From contig JBAZYF010000001.1 of NCBI GenBank assembly GCA_041659505.1, forward strand, positions 101,475-165,474: 64,000 nt of DNA, in the 5' to 3' direction. The stretch comes from Parcubacteria group bacterium. Its GTDB lineage: Bacteria; Patescibacteriota; Minisyncoccia; Moranbacterales; UBA2206. This document shows, one piece after another, positions 3,160 through 63,993 of this stretch; the stretch's first letter is position 1; each line of letters starts with the position of its first letter. The notes under the pieces were generated by a model. That model did no database searches, was not told where the DNA came from, and saw only the letters and a program-made list of their open reading frames with translations. Both the position numbers and the translations under genes were made by a program.

Positions 3160-4911
3160 TTATTCCACCGCTAGTCCGCTTGGCATATTCGGTGGAATCG
3201 CGTCAGATCCATGATATTCATAAGCACCAATGCTTGGAGGATTATTTATGGATTGTCCTAAATAATCCGTTGCCAGTCCCACATCGATTCCTGTCCATTT
3301 TGCGGGGGATGGAGCCGTTAGATTATAATCACCACCAGAAAAATTAAATAATAGAGGGTCAGAAACAGAACTATTAGCATCATACCCCAATGTGTTCCAT
3401 TGTAAAAATGTTTTACTTCCCCCATCATCTTCGATGGCCCATTCAGATGTGCCCCTATTAACATTGCTGGCCGGAAAGTACAAATTATAATTAATCACCG
3501 AGTTACTAACTGACCCTAAATACACAAGCCAATTTAAATTAGGGAGATTGTCGCTAACTACGATATTATTTTCAATGATATAGCTATCTAATTGGCCTAT
3601 TGAATATATGCCTATCCGACTGTCTGTTATGATCGTGTTATTATATATATAATTTTCTCCTCCTGGCGTAGCAATGGGAAAAATACTTAGATTACTAGTC
3701 CAACCATCAGAATTGCCGCCGTACAAAATATTGTAGTAAATTTTGTTATTATAAAAGGACGAGGCAAGTTGTTCAGGTGCTAATTGAATGGTATTTTGCA
3801 AAGTGTTGATATAATTTCTATAGATATTATTATTCGACCCATCGTGACAGGAACCGACATAATGAACAAATCCCCGGCACATCCCAGTAATATTATTTTC
3901 ATATACACTTGAGTTGTTTAAAGCTTGCGTCCCGATGCCTTCCGTATCTGTCCCACCTGACCAGCCCCAATATGTATAGGCGAAATCAATGTCATAATCA
4001 TTTCCGTATGTTCTCCAGATATAGGGGGTATTTTTGGCCTGAGAGCAATGAGTTATCGCATTAGATGCGATAGTTGCTCCCATAAAAGCACCCGCGTCAC
4101 CTTGAGTAGCAGTGTTAGCAGTTCCAAGCTCTATGCTATTTTGGACATAGCTAAAATTATTATCCGTGATACTAATTCCCGTGGATATGGCATTGTTGGT
4201 AAAAATCTGTACGCCTTGTATGATATCATCGAAATCAGAATTAGTAACTAGGATGTAATCATTATGAGAACCAGCAATGTTGGCAGTATAGACGCCATTG
4301 CCATATCTTCTAAAAGACAATCCATCAATAGTTATATAGCTATGAGAACCTAAGTTTATACCATACAAACGAGTATACTGAATAATGTGATCAGCCGGTA
4401 TCCCACTGGTTGGTTTATAGTAATTTTTCCATCCGCTTTCCCAGTATACATTTCCATAATTACATTCTGTGTCTCTGCCATATCTTAGTGGCACATCATC
4501 CTCATAGATTGCATTATTAGTCACCGCCGTTGTGCTATATACTCCAGCCACCGGATCATTGGCAGTCCACTCGGTAATTGTGACACTCCCATCCAGAATA
4601 GCCTTGCCTGTCCCATAAGAATTAATAATGATAGGATTCCCCTCTGTGCCAGAAGCGCCAACAGTAACTGTTCCATAATATGTCGTCCCACCTTTCTGCG
4701 AATAAGTATTGCCCGCCACCCACGATACTTCCGCCCAAGTTTTAAAAGGGCCACTAGCTCCGCAAGTTATAGTTGTACCATTGCCACTGCTTCCACAAGT
4801 TGGATCGATGTAGACCGTGGCAGCACTAGCCTTAGCACCAAAGCTAAAAAGGCCACAAAATATTAATAGACTTAGAAAAATTAATTTAGAATTTAGTAAT
4901 TTAGACTTCAT
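3160..4911 (-). CDS. Secreted beta-helix protein, array paralog P2 (583 aa), divergent subfamily.
   Basis: It has the same signal peptide style (…FGAKASA then ATVYIDPTCGSSGNGTT…PFKTWAEV). The cap and middle are different. It shares only the GAYEYHG motif and the terminal tail IPPNMPSGLAVE with the others. Confidence 0.8.
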   Translation of the reverse strand: MKSKLLNSKLIFLSLLIFCGLFSFGAKASAATVYIDPTCGSSGNGTTITCGASGPFKTWAEVSWVAGNTYSQKGGTTYYGTVTVGASGTEGNPIIINSYGTGKAILDGSVTITEWTANDPVAGVYSTTAVTNNAIYEDDVPLRYGRDTECNYGNVYWESGWKNYYKPTSGIPADHIIQYTRLYGINLGSHSYITIDGLSFRRYGNGVYTANIAGSHNDYILVTNSDFDDIIQGVQIFTNNAISTGISITDNNFSYVQNSIELGTANTATQGDAGAFMGATIASNAITHCSQAKNTPYIWRTYGNDYDIDFAYTYWGWSGGTDTEGIGTQALNNSSVYENNITGMCRGFVHYVGSCHDGSNNNIYRNYINTLQNTIQLAPEQLASSFYNNKIYYNILYGGNSDGWTSNLSIFPIATPGGENYIYNNTIITDSRIGIYSIGQLDSYIIENNIVVSDNLPNLNWLVYLGSVSNSVINYNLYFPASNVNRGTSEWAIEDDGGSKTFLQWNTLGYDANSSVSDPLLFNFSGGDYNLTAPSPAKWTGIDVGLATDYLGQSINNPPSIGAYEYHGSDAIPPNMPSGLAVE

Positions 4912-23657: not shown

Positions 23658-23882
23658 CCCCTTCTCCTCTCGGGAGAAGGTGCCCGGAGGGCGGATGAGG
23701 GCAAGGGCGTTTGATTAAGAAAAAATTAGCTTTGTTTAGATTATTCTTAGCTTATCACCCTTGCCCTCACCTGTCATGAGTACATGACATCCTCTCCCGA
23801 GGGGAGAAGAGGAATTGAAGAGACTATTTTATAGCCTCACCTGTCACGTGCTCGTGACATCCTCTCCCTAAGGGAGAGGAGG
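23658..23882. repeat. REP/MITE-like composite element (family 1). Two inverted arms flank ~55 bp, plus an extra tandem half.
   Basis: The left arm ...GGGAGAAGGTGCCCGGAGGGCGGATGAGGGCAAGGGC and the right arm CCCTTGCCCTCACCTGTCATGAGTACATGACATCCTCTCCCGAGGGGAGAAG are reverse complements in their modules. The GTCACGTGCTCGTGAC and TCCTCTCCCTAAGGGAGAGGA hairpins repeat at 23826-23882. Confidence 0.75.
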
Positions 23883-23891
23883 AAATTTTTA

Positions 23892-25262
23892 TTATTCCAT
23901 AAAACTCTTCCCTCGTAATTTTTTATGATACGTAATTGCAAAACGATGGGCTTCGTCGCGGACGCGTTCGATGATTTCGTCGGATATTTCCGGCACACTA
24001 CCGAAAGAATAGCGGTCGAGTTTTTTACGGGTCGGACCTTTGGCGACAGCCAAAAGCGGGATCTCCAGATGAAAATTTTTGAGCACACGCCGCACCGCTG
24101 TGAGATGACCTTGCCCGCCGTCTAAAATTATAAGATCTGGCATCGGCCAATTATTGCCAAATCTGCGCCCCAAAACTTCCGCCATCGAAGCCGTATCATT
24201 TGCGCCTTCGATGGTTTTTATTTTAAATTTGCGATACTGACTCTTGTTTGGGCCTATTTCCCCATTCGCATTATCAAACACCACCATAGACCCGACGCTC
24301 GATTTTCCGGAAATATTAGAAATGTCATAACCCTCAATGCGAAATGATTTTGCGTCGCCCTTGTAGAGACGAGGCACTGCCTCGTCTTGGCATTGTTGGT
24401 TTGCGCATTGACGTTCATTGCTCTCAAGACGTGGCAATGCCACGTCTCTACCTTCTGATATCAACGCAATATCCCGAATATGCTGCAACGCAAAAATCGC
24501 ATTGCGCATTTTCCCCGCTTTTTCAAATTCCTGTTTCTCGCTTAATTCTGACATTTCTTTTTTCATTTTCGCAAGCAATGTTTTTTTCTTGCCTTCCAAA
24601 ATCATCCGTATGCCACGGATATTTTTCATATAATCCTCTTTAGAAATCGCCCCAGCATATGGCCCCGGACAAAGCCCGATCTGAAAATCCAAGCAACCAC
24701 TTTCCGTTTTTTGCGCCTTGGAATGATAGGGAAAAATTTTCCTAAGTATTTTCAGCGCAATTTCAATATTTTTTTTGGAAATATATGGACCATAGATTTT
24801 ACTAAATTTGGATTTTATATCGACATCTTGATCCATTTCTCTTTTTCGCAAAAACAATATCCGCGGAAAATCTTCTTTTGTAATGGCAACATAAGAAAAT
24901 GACTTATCATCTTTTCCATCCACATTAAACTTCGGCTGCCACTTTTTGATCAGTCCCTGCTCTAAAATATATGCCTCCAAAACCGTCTCGGTTTTTCGAA
25001 CTTCAATATCCGCCACTTGAGAAATAAACATTTCAATCGGTCGCGATCCCATTCGTAAATTCGTAGGGGTTTGATTCATCAAACCCTCGGCTATTCCGGG
25101 TTCAATAAATTGAACCCCTACAAAATACGAACCAACCCGGTCTTTAAGTGATGTCGCTTTGCCCACATACAAAATTTTCCCAGAATCATTTCTAAAAATA
25201 TAGACACCGGGAGAGGTGGGCAGACTTTTCAGTTTTTTGGCGATTTTGGTTGACATTTGCAT
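23892..25262 (-). CDS. uvrC: Excinuclease ABC subunit C (UvrC). This is a short form lacking the C-terminal HhH region and carrying an in-frame palindromic-element insertion.
   Basis: GIY-YIG domain (GVYIFRNDSGKILYVGKATSLKDRVGSYF), UVR-like segment (EKQEFEKAGKMRNAIFALQ), and the RNase H-like endonuclease domain (YDISNISG...PDLIILDGGQGHL...RDEAHRFAITYH). 456 aa. Confidence 0.9.
   Translation of the reverse strand: MQMSTKIAKKLKSLPTSPGVYIFRNDSGKILYVGKATSLKDRVGSYFVGVQFIEPGIAEGLMNQTPTNLRMGSRPIEMFISQVADIEVRKTETVLEAYILEQGLIKKWQPKFNVDGKDDKSFSYVAITKEDFPRILFLRKREMDQDVDIKSKFSKIYGPYISKKNIEIALKILRKIFPYHSKAQKTESGCLDFQIGLCPGPYAGAISKEDYMKNIRGIRMILEGKKKTLLAKMKKEMSELSEKQEFEKAGKMRNAIFALQHIRDIALISEGRDVALPRLESNERQCANQQCQDEAVPRLYKGDAKSFRIEGYDISNISGKSSVGSMVVFDNANGEIGPNKSQYRKFKIKTIEGANDTASMAEVLGRRFGNNWPMPDLIILDGGQGHLTAVRRVLKNFHLEIPLLAVAKGPTRKKLDRYSFGSVPEISDEIIERVRDEAHRFAITYHKKLRGKSFME
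24363..24450. repeat. Palindromic element (family 4) inserted in frame inside uvrC. It has two perfect hairpins, GACGAGGCACTGCCTCGTC and GACGTGGCAATGCCACGTC, flanked by TAGAGA...TCTCTA.
   Basis: Read directly from the sequence. It encodes ...RDVALPRLESNERQCANQQCQDEAVPRLYK... in the UvrC linker. A second copy lies intergenic at 41158-41226. Confidence 0.75.
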
Positions 25263-41157: not shown

Positions 41158-41226
41158 ACGGAAATCTGGTAGAGACGAGGCACTGCCTCGTCTTAATGCT
41201 GGTGGTTTTTAAGACGAGGCAGTGCC
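41158..41226. repeat. Palindromic element (family 4), intergenic copy: GGTAGAGACGAGGCACTGCCTCGTCTT-N15-AAGACGAGGCAGTGCCTCGTCTCTAC.
   Basis: It has the same hairpin module as the uvrC in-frame insert (24363-24450). Confidence 0.75.
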
Positions 41227-41351
41227 TCGTCTCTACGGGGGATATTCGGCTATTACAAGCCAAGAAATGACTTAAAATAGCCATTTTGGACTTGACGAAA
41301 GAATGGCGCCGTGCTAACCTCAAATGAGTCATAGACTGGAAATTTTAATCT

Positions 41352-45846: not shown

Positions 45847-45856
45847 TAATCAAAAA

Positions 45857-45879
45857 AGAGCCTCGAGGCTCTTTTTTTA
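45857..45879 (+). terminator. Rho-independent terminator AGAGCCTC-GAGGCTCT followed by TTTTTTT.
   Basis: Read directly after the PMM stop. Confidence 0.7.
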
Positions 45880-45880
45880 T

Positions 45881-46051
45881 GTGTCATTCCCGCGAAGGCG
45901 GGAATCCAGGTTCCACTAGCTTTAAACTCTGGAAAATCGAGATGCAAGTCTAACATGCTTTTAGTTTCAGTAAGTCTTGAATTTTAATAATTCGTTTTTT
46001 CCTAGTGTTGAACTTGAGGTGCCTGGATCCCCGCCTTCGCGAGGATGACAC
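45881..46051. repeat. MITE-like element, family 2, copy 1. Its ~30 bp terminal inverted repeats are GTGTCATTCCCGCGAAGGCGGGAATCCAGGTTCCACTAG ... CCTGGATCCCCGCCTTCGCGAGGATGACAC.
   Basis: The terminal inverted repeats were read directly. There are three copies in the window (also 59118-59320 and 63497-63665). Confidence 0.8.
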
Positions 46052-46126
46052 TCATTGAAGTGTCTTGCAAAAAAAAGAAACGAGTCATCGGCTCGCTTCT
46101 CATCTTTCTCAGTAAATTAGAACAAT

Positions 46127-47293
46127 TTAAAGGATAAACCCCACTTTTTTCTTCACCTCATCCAACTTCTTCTTCGCCAATGGTCGGACTTTTTTGGCGC
46201 CGTCTTCGAGGATCTTTAGCACTTTTTCGTCAGACAATTCCGCCATCCGTCTTTGGAACGGTTCGAGGAATTTGATAATTACTTCTGCGAGTTCTGTTTT
46301 GAAGTCAGAATACTTTTTACCCACAAAAAGCTCCGCCACTTCTTGGGGTTTTTTATTGTCCAAAAGAGCATAAATATTGATCAAATTTTTGAGCGCCGGT
46401 TTATCGTCAGAATAAATAATTTCACTGCCGCTGTCCGTCACCGCTTTTTTGATTTTTCTCTTCACTGTATCCGCGTCATCGCTAAGTGCGATGTAGTTAT
46501 ATTCCGATTTGGCCGATTTAGACATTTTCTTGGTTGGATCATCAAGACCCATGATATTTTCACTTTCTTTGTTTGTGTACGCCTCTGGCACCACAAATGT
46601 CTCGCCAAATTTATGATTAAATCTTTGTGCTAAAGTCCGCGCTAGTTCGATGTGTTGCTTTTGGTCTTTGCCGACAGGCACCGCCTGGGTATCATAGAGC
46701 AAAATATCAGCCGCCATTAAAACTGGGTAATCAAAAAGACCAACCGAAGATTTATTAAATGTTTCTCTGATAAATTTTTTATATACATCAACGGTTGAAA
46801 GTATGGCTGTTTTATGCAAAAAATTTGCAAGTTCAAGAATCTTATCTGCTTTAACCGCTCTATCGATTACGAACCCATTGTTTTCTAAATTCGTTATTAT
46901 ATCTTCCTTTGATTTTTCCATCATTGCTTCAACAAAAACATCTTCGTCAAAACCAGTCTTATCTTTGAATTGAGTCATTTTATTCAGATCACCATTCTGG
47001 GTAATCGTATTTAAAATCCAACTCAGCTCCGCATGCTCCGAAACGTGCGATTGGATAAAAATTGAACATTTCCCTGGGTCTATCCCCGCTGCCAAATAAA
47101 TCTTGGCGATTTCAATTGTGCGACGACGTAGCGTTTCCGGATCTTGCGGAACCGTGATGGCGTGCATATCCACGACACAAAAAATCGAATCATACTCCTC
47201 TTGTAACTTGACCCAATTCTGGATTGCGCCGAGATAGTTTCCAATGTGAAGATTCCCCGATGGCTGAATGCCAGAAAATATGCGTTTTTTCAT
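46127..47293 (-). CDS. trpS: Tryptophan--tRNA ligase (TrpRS) with an ~60-70 aa insertion.
   Basis: HIGH-region GIQPSGNLHIGNYLG, KMSKS motif, and the TrpRS-specific GKDQKQHIELAR. Confidence 0.85.
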   Translation of the reverse strand: MKKRIFSGIQPSGNLHIGNYLGAIQNWVKLQEEYDSIFCVVDMHAITVPQDPETLRRRTIEIAKIYLAAGIDPGKCSIFIQSHVSEHAELSWILNTITQNGDLNKMTQFKDKTGFDEDVFVEAMMEKSKEDIITNLENNGFVIDRAVKADKILELANFLHKTAILSTVDVYKKFIRETFNKSSVGLFDYPVLMAADILLYDTQAVPVGKDQKQHIELARTLAQRFNHKFGETFVVPEAYTNKESENIMGLDDPTKKMSKSAKSEYNYIALSDDADTVKRKIKKAVTDSGSEIIYSDDKPALKNLINIYALLDNKKPQEVAELFVGKKYSDFKTELAEVIIKFLEPFQRRMAELSDEKVLKILEDGAKKVRPLAKKKLDEVKKKVGFIL

Positions 47294-53910: not shown

Positions 53911-54068
53911 CCTCCTCTCCCTTAGGGAGAGGATGTCACATACTCGTGACAGGTGAGGGAAAAGGGCTAAAAAATTATAGGTAAACTAACTAAAATTAGT
54001 CTTTCTATAACATCAAGTCCCCTCCCTCATCCGCCCTTCGGGCACCTTCTCCCTAAGGGAGAAGGGGT
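53911..54068. repeat. REP/MITE-like element (family 1). Two inverted arms flank ~55 bp.
   Basis: CCTCCTCTCCCTTAGGGAGAGGATGTCACATACTCGTGACAGGTGAGGGAAAAGGGC ... CCCCTCCCTCATCCGCCCTTCGGGCACCTTCTCCCTAAGGGAGAAGGGG. Confidence 0.7.
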
Positions 54069-54098
54069 AATTCGTTTAATTTGTAAGTAATTTAAAGT

Positions 54099-59069: not shown

Positions 59070-59092
59070 ATTTTATTTCAACATTTTTAAAA

Positions 59093-59114
59093 CCCCGCAT
59101 GAGCGGGGTTTTTT
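59093..59114 (+). terminator. Rho-independent terminator CCCCGC-ATGA-GCGGGG followed by TTTTTT.
   Basis: Read directly after the rplT stop. Confidence 0.75.
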
Positions 59115-59117
59115 GAT

Positions 59118-59320
59118 GTGTCATTCCCGCGACCGCGTGCCGCCTTAGCTTTAGCGGTGGAGCAAGGCGGGAATCCAGTTTCCACTAGTTATCAACTCTG
59201 GAAAATCGAGATGCAAGTCCAGCAAGCTCTCAATTTCAGTTAGTCTTGAATTTCAATAATTCGTTTTTTCTTAATTTAAGATCTGAGGTGCCTGGATCCC
59301 CGCCTTCGCGGGGATGACAC
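59118..59320. repeat. MITE-like element, family 2, copy 2.
   Basis: GTGTCATTCCCGCGACCGCG...GGCGGGAATCCAGTTTCCACTAG ... CCTGGATCCCCGCCTTCGCGGGGATGACAC. The internal sequence is similar to copy 1. Confidence 0.8.
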
Positions 59321-59332
59321 AAGAGAAAAACA

Positions 59333-59533
59333 TTACCTCTTCTTCCCCAAAATCACCTCACGGATCAAACGTCGGAGGCCATAAAAGGGCAACCAGATCC
59401 AGAGTGTTTTTTTGAACCAGGTGTTCCAAAAAGCATTGGGATTGGTGGCGAAATAATCAAAGACAAGGTAGAGGATGAAAAAAAGCAGAATGAATGGTCC
59501 AAACATCAGCACATAGGCATCAAATATATTCAT
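59333..59533 (-). CDS. Small hypothetical membrane protein (66 aa).
   Basis: MNIFDAYVLMFGPFILLFFILYLVFDYF... One or two TM helices. Confidence 0.4.
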   Translation of the reverse strand: MNIFDAYVLMFGPFILLFFILYLVFDYFATNPNAFWNTWFKKTLWIWLPFYGLRRLIREVILGKKR

Positions 59534-59553: not shown

Positions 59554-60273
59554 TTAATTTTTATTATTAATCTCATAGAGCACGTCTTTTTTCTCCACCA
59601 TAATTTTCCAGCCTTTCTTTTGAGCGATCTGGCGCAGATTCAAATCGGGATTGAAAGCGATCGGCGCATCGACCAGTTCCAAAAATGATGCGTCAGATTG
59701 CGTATCACCAATCCCAAAAGATCCGACCAGCGAGATATCATTTTCTGCCACAAACTGCTTCACGACTGAACCCTTGTCATGCGTCGGCTCAAAGACAGTT
59801 TTCCCCGTATAAAGCTTATTTTTGTCGATTTCATAGACACTGCCATAGTAAGCATCAAATTGGAGAATTTCGGCATATTCTTTCACGATCTCGATCGGTG
59901 AACCGGAAATCATGAGCATCACGTGGTCATGGCGCATCTCTTCAATAATTTTTTTAGCAAAGATGTAGGTCCGCTTGGCATTGAAATCAGCCACTACCTT
60001 TGCCGCCTTGATGATATCCTCCTGACTCTTGCCTTTTAGATTTTTTTCATATAAATCCACTAGTTTCACGCGATACGCCTCATAGGTCCCCTCGTTGTCC
60101 AGCCAGTGGCCATAGAGAGTCATTAGTTCACTACGGACAGTTTTGGGAAATATCTTCATCCAAGACAATTCGTTCAAAAGTTCAAAAGCTAAATTTTTAC
60201 GAAAAATCGTACCATCAATATCAAAAATAGCAATTTTTTTCTTATGCATTTTTTTGCAGATTTCTTTGATCAT
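59554..60273 (-). CDS. HAD-IB family hydrolase (phosphoserine phosphatase-like).
   Basis: Motif I IAIFDIDGTI, motif II S/T in MLMISGS, motif III K, and motif IV GDTQSD. Confidence 0.7.
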   Translation of the reverse strand: MIKEICKKMHKKKIAIFDIDGTIFRKNLAFELLNELSWMKIFPKTVRSELMTLYGHWLDNEGTYEAYRVKLVDLYEKNLKGKSQEDIIKAAKVVADFNAKRTYIFAKKIIEEMRHDHVMLMISGSPIEIVKEYAEILQFDAYYGSVYEIDKNKLYTGKTVFEPTHDKGSVVKQFVAENDISLVGSFGIGDTQSDASFLELVDAPIAFNPDLNLRQIAQKKGWKIMVEKKDVLYEINNKN

Positions 60274-62466: not shown

Positions 62467-63483
62467 TTATTGATTATGAAACATCCCTTTCGCCGTGTCC
62501 CACAGTTCTGGGTGATTATTATTCACTTTCAACCAATACCACCACTCCGCGCCCCAGAGATAGATTTCTGGAAAACCAACTTGCCGGGCGAAGGAAACAT
62601 TATCCTGCAGTTTTTGGACATTCATTGACTCAAATTGTTTTTCCAGAGGTTGATTAGTTGTCCAGCCATTGATCCATGGTTCCGCTTGCAACTCAATCAC
62701 AATTGCATTGTCATTTTTGACAAACAACTGATTCATCCAATATTTGAATTGAAAAAAGCGCGGACCGATCGGATAGGTATAAAAAAGATCATATTTAGCA
62801 GTATAAATCGTCCGGTACATTGTCGTACCGAAAATATCCGCCCGAGAAATTGCATTGTACCATAAGCTAAGTTCTCCCGAATCAGTCACGATGATTTTTC
62901 GACTGGGGTCAGTTTTGTGCGCCATCGCGATTTCACTATCCAATAGATTTTTGTCCAAGACCGGACACTCCCCAAATTTCAAAAACGGCTCATTCTCAAT
63001 CTGCCAATATTTGACCGCCTTAGAATTTTTATAATGCTCAACCACGACCCGCACAAATTCCACCAGCTCCATTTTTCTCTTAGCATCATCATTTTTGAGA
63101 TATTCCGGGATGAAACATTCTGGCCAACGTGGCACTTTTTGTCCAACGGCGAGAATTATTTCGGCATTGCGTTTTTCGGCCTCCTGCATCTGCCAATCTA
63201 GATCAGTAAAATCATATTGACCTTCTTGCGGTTCCACCCAATCCCAATAGACCGGCACACGGATCTTTTTCACACCCAAATCATCCAAAGTAGCAAGGTA
63301 GGCCGCGCGCCAATCCAGACCAATATCCTCAGCGTAGCGCTTGGAAAAGGTGACACCCAGTTTTGCGTCAGTATTTTCTTTGGCTACAGGAATATTAAAA
63401 AAAATCAGAATTACACAAGCAAGAGCAAAGATGACGAGGAAGGTTTTGAAGATAATTTTGAGCACTTTTTTTGTTTTTTGCAT
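62467..63483 (-). CDS. Membrane-anchored TIM-barrel glycoside hydrolase (GH5-like clan GH-A). NEP catalytic motif WQIENEP.
   Basis: 338 aa. N-terminal TM helix. ...KYWQIENEPF... is the typical acid/base NEP of clan GH-A. Confidence 0.55.
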   Translation of the reverse strand: MQKTKKVLKIIFKTFLVIFALACVILIFFNIPVAKENTDAKLGVTFSKRYAEDIGLDWRAAYLATLDDLGVKKIRVPVYWDWVEPQEGQYDFTDLDWQMQEAEKRNAEIILAVGQKVPRWPECFIPEYLKNDDAKRKMELVEFVRVVVEHYKNSKAVKYWQIENEPFLKFGECPVLDKNLLDSEIAMAHKTDPSRKIIVTDSGELSLWYNAISRADIFGTTMYRTIYTAKYDLFYTYPIGPRFFQFKYWMNQLFVKNDNAIVIELQAEPWINGWTTNQPLEKQFESMNVQKLQDNVSFARQVGFPEIYLWGAEWWYWLKVNNNHPELWDTAKGMFHNQ

Positions 63484-63496
63484 TTTTGTTTCTGCC

Positions 63497-63665
63497 GTGT
63501 CATTCCCGCGAAGGCGGGAATCCAGGTTCCACTAGTTATGTATTATAAAAAAATGAATTATAAATTCTCAGATTTCATATTACAGCTTGTTTATTTTTTA
63601 TTTGTTCGTTTTCTCTAAAAGTTAAGCCTGAGGTATCTGGATCCCCGCCTTCGCGGGGATGACAC
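63497..63665. repeat. MITE-like element, family 2, copy 3. Same terminal inverted repeats, different AT-rich interior.
   Basis: GTGTCATTCCCGCGAAGGCGGGAATCCAGGTTCCACTAG ... CTGGATCCCCGCCTTCGCGGGGATGACAC. Confidence 0.8.
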
Positions 63666-63672
63666 GAATTAA

Positions 63673-63993
63673 TTATCTCTTCACATGCGAAACCAGTCCG
63701 ATTCCAACGGCAATAATAATAATCGCTAAAATCTTCTGCAGAACGGTTTTCCAATCTTTTTTTTCTTGCATCACTTCGGGCACCCAGGCGGAAAAAAGGA
63801 TGCTGAGGATGAAAATAAAGACATATTCGACAGAAACCAGTGCGCTCACGATCGTCACACTAGCTGTGGCCAGTGAGGTGGCATATTCTTTCAGAAACGA
63901 TCCACTGCCACCCATAATTTTGGCCAGCACAAAAGAAGCGCCTGATTTTTGGTGGTCTTTTTGGGGCTTTTTAAATTTCAAAAGTGAACCCAA
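63673..63993 (-). CDS. Hypothetical membrane protein (106 aa). It may extend beyond the window end.
   Basis: Two predicted TM helices (…ASVTIVSALVSVEYVFIFILSILFSAWV…, …ILAIIIIAVGIGLVSHV). The start lies within 8 nt of the window edge. Confidence 0.35.
   Translation of the reverse strand: MGSLLKFKKPQKDHQKSGASFVLAKIMGGSGSFLKEYATSLATASVTIVSALVSVEYVFIFILSILFSAWVPEVMQEKKDWKTVLQKILAIIIIAVGIGLVSHVKR

Follow-up and report, generated by a model that had tools for sequence, protein, structure and literature searches.

Inverted dimers of the Ssn-related motif in a bacterium of the candidate phyla radiation

Are short, hairpin-ended repeats behind bacterial genes MITEs (miniature transposable elements with inverted repeats) whose transposase lies elsewhere, or do they belong to a system that has already been described? 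This question is raised by three elements in a stretch of 64,000 nucleotides from a Parcubacteria group bacterium (assembly GCA_041659505.1, contig JBAZYF010000001.1, positions 101,475 to 165,474; in the following “the window”), which a sequence-only reading had described as a MITE-like family. We report that the elements belong to a known repeat/nuclease system, here in a bacterium of the candidate phyla radiation (CPR), and not a new kind of transposon. Their ends almost certainly belong to the class of the Ssn-related motif (SRM), or CGTC-1. We give a probability of about 70% to the reading in which SRM-ssn-SRM units have these inverted SRM dimers as their gene-less counterparts, with ends that are recognized by the small nuclease Ssn.

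The elements and the motif at their ends

Copy A (45881-46051, 171 bp) lies between the convergent genes of phosphomannomutase and tryptophanyl-tRNA synthetase (TrpRS). Its left SRM (45882-45909, plus strand) reads TGTCATTCCCGCGAAGGCGGGAATCCAG, its right SRM (46023-46050, minus strand) reads TGTCATCCTCGCGAAGGCGGGGATCCAG with one stem pair weakened to G-T, and a spacer of approximately 113 nt separates the two. Copy B (59118-59320, 203 bp) is found between a conserved open reading frame (ORF) of 66 aa and a terminator shared with rplT. Its left SRM (59119-59178, plus strand) is the same motif with 32 bases added within the hairpin loop (about 59133-59164), leading to a loop of 36 nt, and its right SRM occupies 59292-59319 on the minus strand. 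Copy C (63497-63665, 169 bp) has an AT-rich center, carries its SRMs at 63498-63525 (plus strand) and 63637-63664 (minus strand), and sits in a gap that measures no more than 13 nt in relatives. The sequence-only reading had placed all three elements at exactly these positions.

The termini are inverted repeats of 28-30 nt, each with an 8-bp hairpin. If up to three mismatches are allowed, the 30-mer GTGTCATTCCCGCGAAGGCGGGAATCCAGG has five matches in the window compared to 0.00 expected (100 shuffles), and together with the long-loop end of copy B these make the shared inverted termini, as first described, a real feature. The 5′ half-motif GTCATYCCCGCG occurs exactly six times, once per end of the three elements, so that there are no solitary copies in the window. 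The alignment of copy A with copy B covers 157 nt at 87% identity, and that of copy C with copy B 159 nt at 74%. As the similarity in the three-way alignment extends well inside both terminal repeats, the earlier description of the third interior as unrelated and AT-rich applies to the center of copy C alone, which is indeed AT-rich and different.

As single-stranded DNA, each end forms a hairpin of 8 bp closed by a GAAG loop of 4 nt, with energies between −6.3 and −9.7 kcal/mol, and the entire copy A can alternatively form a single long hairpin (−39.3 kcal/mol, z = −7.75). All three copies have ATTCCCGC/GCGGGAAT as left stem and ATCCCCGC/GCGGGGAT as right stem. Left and right ends thus differ by a compensated pair, which shows that each hairpin is maintained as a structure in itself and that pairing between the two ends is not the reason.

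The Neisseria Transformation Sequence (NTS), CGTCATTCCCGCGMAVGCGGGAATCYRG, contains dRS3 and was generalized as SRM by Chenal et al. (2025, Nat Commun 16:2388, PMC11893778). According to these authors SsnA, a GIY-YIG protein of 94 aa, binds the motif exclusively in single-stranded DNA and makes its cut 3 nt upstream, and GTC before and C after the palindrome are critical for cutting and binding. These activities were established for the Neisseria and Wolbachia enzymes, and in N. meningitidis SsnA lowers transformation with NTS-carrying DNA (PMC11893778). The left ends of copies A and C match the NTS consensus in 27 of 28 positions. All six ends follow GTC-[AT(T/C)CC(C/T)GC...GCGGG(A/G)AT]-C, with GTC directly 5′ and C directly 3′ of the palindrome. 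The SRM search pattern taken from the same paper, HGTCWYN(0-2)YYVSBRHN(0-5)WNVSBRGN(0-2)RNCYNB, is matched by five of the six ends, that is by all intact ones, at an expectation of 0.08 per dinucleotide-shuffled window; it allows loops of 0-5 nt and has no match at the left end of copy B.

The ends also have the anatomy of CGTC-1, a family of CGTC-tagged repetitive extragenic palindromes (REPs) with a stem of 8 bp, a loop of 4 nt and TGTC as a frequent form of the tag (Di Nocera et al. 2013, BMC Genomics 14:522, PMC3733652). This family occurs mainly as inverted dimers after genes, and it is the repeat that goes by the names dRS3 (Neisseria) and RPE-6 (Rickettsia conorii) (PMC3733652). We find an unpaired TGTC tag, an 8-bp stem that opens with A-T and then T-A, a 4-nt loop, from which the left loop of copy B deviates, and a short conserved tail. 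All three window copies are inverted dimers near gene 3′ ends, between convergent or same-direction genes.

The motif is also contained in the consensus sequences of two Rfam families, namely WsnRNA46 (RF02625), which is an SRM dimer, and FtrB (RF02748), which reads GuCauuCcCGCGuAGGCGgGaauC. The window copies reach 23-35 bits against these families, with 34.7 bits (E = 9.4e-06) for WsnRNA46, and thus stay below the gathering scores of 65-66; the stretch compared with the two consensus sequences is 45870-46064. At gathering thresholds the search over the window found the transfer-messenger RNA alone and nothing at the elements; plant microRNA matches at relaxed thresholds reflect only the long-hairpin shape and were dropped. 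Judged by the shared sequence, the two “small RNAs” are probably transcribed copies of the SRM repeat. It could also be argued that such elements are kept mainly for an RNA function, as 3′ stabilizers, terminators or small RNAs, and not as selfish DNA. Their position directly after genes, the strong fold of the whole element and the sub-threshold Rfam matches would fit this view. Against it stand the missed gathering scores, the observation that SsnA does not bind RNA (PMC11893778), and sites that are empty in relatives with the same genes, where the elements are consequently not needed. We consider an RNA function very improbable as the main reason for their retention, while such a function is compatible with SRM dimers and does not exclude them.

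A scan of one genome per species with GTGTCATYCCCGCGAAGGCGGGRATCCAG returned the exact 29-mer in at least 120 genome stretches from many phyla, and the motif family is therefore not specific to this genome. Among the matches listed are Rickettsia, many Alpha-, Beta-, Gamma- and Deltaproteobacteria and many Patescibacteria, as well as Omnitrophota, Planctomycetota, Nitrospirota, Chloroflexota, Acidobacteriota, Elusimicrobiota, Bacteroidota and others; the unit conserved among them is (C/T)GTC, the hairpin and CCAG. The 120 listed loci contain 244 motif copies (up to five mismatches), including 85 inverted pairs that span 63-431 bp. The tags point outward in 89 of 102 neighboring pairs, inward in nine, and in the same orientation in four, with a median spacer of 30 nt. 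Stem covariation was counted in 62 distinct sequences: one pair is T-A in 33, C-G in 19, G-C in three and A-T in three of them, and 94-100% are paired per position. Uncompensated combinations at this pair are almost absent though the search pattern permits them, and within a single element the left and right stems are often compensated in different ways.

Several variants were observed in addition. SRMs with loops of 20-36 nt occur in the window (59133-59164) and in L092 (5621-5670), L039 (3981-4028), L111 (about 7649) and L016 (about 6468); as the pattern with its 0-5-nt loop misses them, published SRM counts are probably underestimates. In seven loci (L014, L028, L029, L076, L091, L103, L109) a truncated 5′ half-SRM (GTCAYYCCYGC) precedes a complete SRM at a distance of 6-21 nt, a scar that might record abortive or nested events. 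The SRM dimers of a Rickettsia endosymbiont (L001, L108) lie inside a longer repeat that reaches at least 20 nt past both tags (tggctctagaaaagtgccgt...), so that the repeated unit of this genome is larger than the dimer. An apparent long element in L092 (1,055 bp) turned out to be two separate small elements around an ordinary gene. A pyrimidine-rich bias at positions −3 to −9 upstream of the SRM is weak, and at −1 and −2 it is partly forced by the search pattern; we do not derive a target preference from it.

Insertion sites and the partner gene ssn

If the elements were classical MITEs, they would be deletion derivatives of an insertion sequence, moved by a DDE transposase that acts in trans on the 30-bp terminal inverted repeats. 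The repeats themselves, the small size, the non-coding content, the several copies, their presence or absence among relatives, and the ends TG...CA, which resemble those of many DDE elements, speak in favor of this. We looked for target-site duplications, the check proposed by the sequence-only reading, in 81 elements from many phyla at offsets from −2 to +3 and lengths of 1-9 and found none: whatever the offset and length, neither the number of exact matches nor the mean identity departs from that of shuffled partners. Neither copies A, B and C nor the ssn-bearing units have a duplication. All-against-all clustering of 2,820 ORFs from the 120 listed loci gave no recurrent transposase-like neighbor, and no transposase-bearing element with the same ends was found; every coding element that we found between such ends carries a GIY-YIG gene, ssn. 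Furthermore, compensatory changes preserve the hairpin of each end, also in cases in which they make the two ends unlike. This renders a classical MITE very improbable. Of the earlier description as a non-autonomous mobile element there remains that the elements are dispersed non-coding repeats which are absent at the orthologous sites of relatives.

A second candidate is a REPIN, mobilized by a REP-associated tyrosine transposase (RAYT) or another enzyme of the IS200/IS605 type. The architecture is shared: two hairpin repeats in inverted order with an unpaired tag, an intergenic position after genes, and no duplications. A RAYT-type system may even exist in this genome, as the window contains a GTAG-tagged hairpin-repeat family (GTAGAGACGAGGCACTGCCTCGTCT) with one inverted dimer (41168-41233) and one single copy (24360-24402); the GTAG tag is the classical REP/REPIN signature, and this small genome may hold both tag classes. 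The tag of the elements studied here is (C/T)GTC and not GTAG. Di Nocera et al. described the CGTC family as one without a dedicated transposase and reported that CGTC units flank neither RAYT nor IS200 genes (PMC3733652), and the gene associated with the motif is ssn (PMC11893778). Clustering of the ORFs from the 120 listed loci, without a profile search aimed at Y1 transposases, likewise gave no recurrent Y1-transposase or RAYT neighbor. Mobilization by such an enzyme is accordingly as improbable to us as the DDE route. QMITEs of Coxiella were also tried as an identity and dropped, since they have direct repeats and are reported as genus-specific.

When metagenomes were scanned with the gene that separates copies B and C, 29 loci were obtained, among them relatives that keep the gene order. 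In the strain L127, which is 99.84% identical, copies B and C are unchanged and all eight differences are in genes. In L129 and L132, site C consists of a 13-nt spacer. In L136 the stop codon of the 66-aa ORF is directly followed by the bidirectional terminator, and site B is empty; no syntenic relative has an SRM at this site. Copies B and C are thus lineage-specific insertions. The sequence-only reading would have been refuted by missing duplications together with strictly conserved positions across relatives; of these two, only the missing duplications are observed. Other relatives carry two unrelated palindromic insert families at site C (L128 4691-4825; L130 about 4575-4770; L131 about 2160-2355), which makes this site a recurrent landing place for small hairpin elements.

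The closest relative, L122, with a TrpRS that is 79% identical, has an SRM-ssn-SRM unit of 305 bp in the same intergenic region between the TrpRS and phosphomannomutase genes, at a different offset from the conserved terminator than copy A. Related dimers of 159-170 bp, 76-82% identical over their full length to the window copies, occur in unrelated gene contexts of other Moranbacteria-like genomes. The element family has therefore moved or been transferred within the Moranbacteria clade. One must keep in mind that the flanking genes of the relatives, at 67-88% protein identity, are too diverged to fix the insertion junctions to the base.

The partner gene emerged from the ORF clustering of the 120 listed loci, which surfaced a small GIY-YIG protein adjoining the motifs; tblastn then placed it between inward-reading motifs. 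Intact SRM-ssn-SRM units are present in Patescibacteria (L058, 420 bp) and Saccharibacteria (L103, 431 bp), a unit of 417 bp in L092 has a long-loop left end like copy B, and L039 holds a degenerate ssn copy between SRMs. The Ssn proteins of these units consist of the GIY-YIG domain only; the model that defines ssn genes is cd10448 (approximately 94 aa, single domain). With a cutoff of E <= 1e-10 the family numbers at least 7,955 database proteins, and those with the highest scores are nearly all 95-96 aa long. The SsnA ortholog of Neisseria gonorrhoeae, taken from a chromosome filed among plasmids, has 94 aa with Y6, Y17 and E64 as in PMC11893778, and shares 61% identity with Ssn of L092 and 55% with Ssn of L103, these three residues being conserved. 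Around its gene the NTS forms inverted pairs of 105-183 bp and arrays of dimers. Chenal et al. report that 42% of the ssn homologs are flanked by SRMs on both sides; the authors likened NTS-ssnA-NTS to an insertion sequence and to REP/RAYT, and its mobility stays a hypothesis in their work (PMC11893778).

The motif was also found in 83 stretches of IMG/VR viral contigs, where six of eight ssn genes have an SRM on either side and form units of 372-432 bp with them. Exact SRMs are carried by the viral contigs L156-L235, with complete units of approximately 380 bp for example in L194 (3388-3769), L211 (8600-8980) and L233 (18-398). Such contigs, which may be true phages or prophage-flanking host DNA, are a possible route for the spread of SRM-ssn-SRM units between phyla.

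A possible route of mobilization

Each element is an inverted pair of SRMs with the TGTC tags outward and a lineage-specific spacer in between. Each SRM is a single-stranded hairpin with an 8-bp stem, usually a GAAG loop, and the conserved GTC 5′ and C 3′, and by analogy to Neisseria it would serve as recognition site of Ssn, a single-domain GIY-YIG protein of approximately 95 aa. The window elements would be the gene-less counterparts of the SRM-ssn-SRM units of 0.37-0.43 kb and probably arrived in the Moranbacteria lineage by duplication-free insertion into short gaps beside terminators. If the cleavage known from Neisseria is extrapolated to them, top-strand nicks by Ssn are predicted at about 45878/45879 and 59115/59116, immediately behind the T-runs of the terminators, and bottom-strand nicks approximately 3 nt beyond the right ends. 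Whether Ssn in trans makes the breaks by which the dimers are copied or moved, as was proposed for RAYT and REPINs, is a more tentative matter; we give it slightly less than an even chance.

The main rival explanation regards the dimers as recombination cassettes, comparable to Neisseria intergenic mosaic elements. SRMs would then be sites of breaks and recombination and not transposon ends; the segments between them would be duplicated, swapped and brought from genome to genome by homologous or illegitimate recombination and horizontal transfer, and Ssn would be a host-side or selfish nuclease that only cuts. Copies that share their ends and sub-terminal parts and differ in the center indeed have a mosaic look. 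Tandem units with an 11-nt linker in L092, the dimer arrays of the Neisseria ssnA region, the half-SRMs in front of full ones and the general absence of duplications in the 81 elements are likewise in agreement with recombination.

A further point for this rival comes from Rhizobium plasmids with ssn, whose variant motif (CTCATTCCTGTG...) escapes the SRM pattern; blastn of an ssn unit against plasmids had given no match. The variant dimer (CTCATTCCTGTGCTCGTCACAGGAATCCAG...) adjoins ssn and is present twice in some plasmids and once in others (L240 20457-20857 compared to L242). These plasmids, 96-97% identical over their aligned stretches, thereby differ by a 263-bp indel of one dimer with its spacer, a difference in tandem copy number only, which looks like unequal recombination.

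The insertions B and C speak against recombination. Both are clean insertions into gaps of 0-13 nt in which relatives have no SRM, and this is not explained by recombination among repeats that were already in place. In addition, the predominance of outward tags among neighboring pairs indicates that the dimer behaves as a unit. We therefore regard recombination as a minority view, clearly more probable than the DDE, RAYT and RNA readings.

The interpretation as Ssn-recognized dimers also has evidence against it. The biology demonstrated for Ssn is only the cutting of incoming single-stranded DNA during transformation of N. meningitidis (PMC11893778), and not a movement of DNA. As the two SRMs are inverted, each strand offers one cleavable site, so that the known activity does not lead to a simple excision of one strand. 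No ssn gene is present in the 64-kb window or in the additional 4.5 kb of L127, and the ssn of the closest relative L122 is a pseudogene, frameshifted and with residues 42-60 lost. The window spacers have no similarity to ssn at the protein or DNA level, which leaves a descent from ssn units by internal deletion unsupported for the window copies. Finally, as seen in the Rhizobium indel, the dimer copy number can also change by recombination between dimers.

A more far-reaching idea is that the SRM-ssn-SRM units of approximately 0.4 kb are autonomous transposons, which would be the smallest known, with a GIY-YIG nuclease as duplication-free transposase, the window dimers as their non-autonomous derivatives, and a spread between phyla that is partly borne by phages. 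Such spread would explain why a 29-nt end is identical from Rickettsia to CPR bacteria. We consider this idea unlikely, though less so than recombination cassettes.

Surroundings and comparison with known systems

The earlier statement that the elements sit just after terminators or gene ends is correct for all three. Copy A is flanked by two convergent terminators: that of the phosphomannomutase gene (45852-45878, plus strand), which is conserved in L122, ends 2 nt before it, and that of the TrpRS gene (46065-46101, minus strand) lies 13 nt past its right end. Copy B starts 3 nt beyond the bidirectional terminator after rplT (59089-59114) and lies, like copy A, between convergent genes. Copy C is located between two same-direction genes, after the stop codon of 63673-63993 (minus strand) and 13 nt before the start codon of 62467-63483 (minus strand). 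Across its left end runs the spurious ORF 63217-63618, which reads ...RVIPAKAGIQ... as noticed before. Such repeats generate false small ORFs (VIPAKAGIQ, SFPRRRES and similar peptides), which is of relevance for annotation.

The 66-aa ORF beside copy B (59333-59533, minus strand; MNIFDAYVLMFGPFILLFF...GKKR), located between a HAD-family hydrolase gene (59554-60273, minus strand) and the element, is conserved in all syntenic relatives (L128, L129, L133, L136) and is probably a real small membrane protein. TrpRS (46127-47293, minus strand, 388 aa) matches its profile in two stretches. Its relatives fall into two length classes of approximately 327 aa and 383-398 aa, so that TrpRS seems to contain an insertion of approximately 60 aa in part of the clade. 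With identities of up to 79%, its best relatives are labeled Candidatus Moranbacteria or Moraniibacteriota, which makes the host a CPR bacterium; the G+C content is approximately 42%. A third palindromic repeat, CCTCACCTGTCA...TGACATCCTCTCCC-NNN-GGGAGAGGAGGAA, has two tandem 70-bp copies at 23765-23896 and a partial, distant copy at 54043-54081. Between 1509 and 18415 there are approximately nine ORFs of 393-638 aa on the same strand, at least seven of which share repeat blocks (families D1-D4) at both gene ends; this run looks like a tandemly amplified gene family.

What appeared as an orphan MITE family is thus the already described Ssn recognition repeat, and our additions to it are modest. 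The system extends to CPR bacteria with very small genomes, where the dimers form a conserved family of 160-200 bp. That dimers arrive by insertion, and without duplications, is shown by orthologous sites that are empty, and compact SRM-ssn-SRM units, one of them decaying, are present in CPR genomes and viral contigs. Modest new points are also the dimers with a conserved long spacer and the long-loop variants of the motif. With CPR dimers, empty sites and compact units at hand, the proposal that Ssn mobilizes its own repeats, as is thought for RAYT and REPINs, can be tested with defined substrates.

Compared to NTS/SRM and SsnA (PMC11893778), the window elements have the same sequence, hairpin and GTC/C positions; inverted pairs are likewise present around ssnA in Neisseria, and the related loci contain SRM-ssn-SRM units. 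They differ in the first base of the motif, which is T and not C, in the CPR host, in the conserved spacer of approximately 113 nt, in the one end with a 36-nt loop, and in the absence of ssn from the window and the additional 4.5 kb. The insertion polymorphism is documented here, whereas mobility is a hypothesis in that paper. CGTC-1 (PMC3733652) shares the TGTC tag variant, the 8-bp stem with its A-T/T-A opening, the 4-nt loop, the tail, the inverted dimers and the positions at 3′ ends; its survey comprised five phyla and no CPR, with spacers of 20-100 bp, and the family was said to lack a dedicated enzyme. WsnRNA46 is an SRM dimer with a Wolbachia-type stem, whose gathering score the window copies do not reach.

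QMITE1 and QMITE2 of Coxiella (PMC5896051) resemble the elements in size, terminal inverted repeats, hairpin potential, positions at gene 3′ ends and spurious small ORFs, but have direct repeats of 2-4 or 7-11 nt, while there are none here. REPIN/RAYT (Bertels and Rainey 2011, PMC3116915) has in common with them the inverted hairpin dimers, the lack of duplications and a single-strand nuclease gene that is itself flanked by the repeat. REPINs carry a GTAG tag and depend on an HUH tyrosine transposase in contrast to the GIY-YIG fold found here, and their families are largely lineage-specific, whereas the 29-mer of the present elements is identical across phyla.

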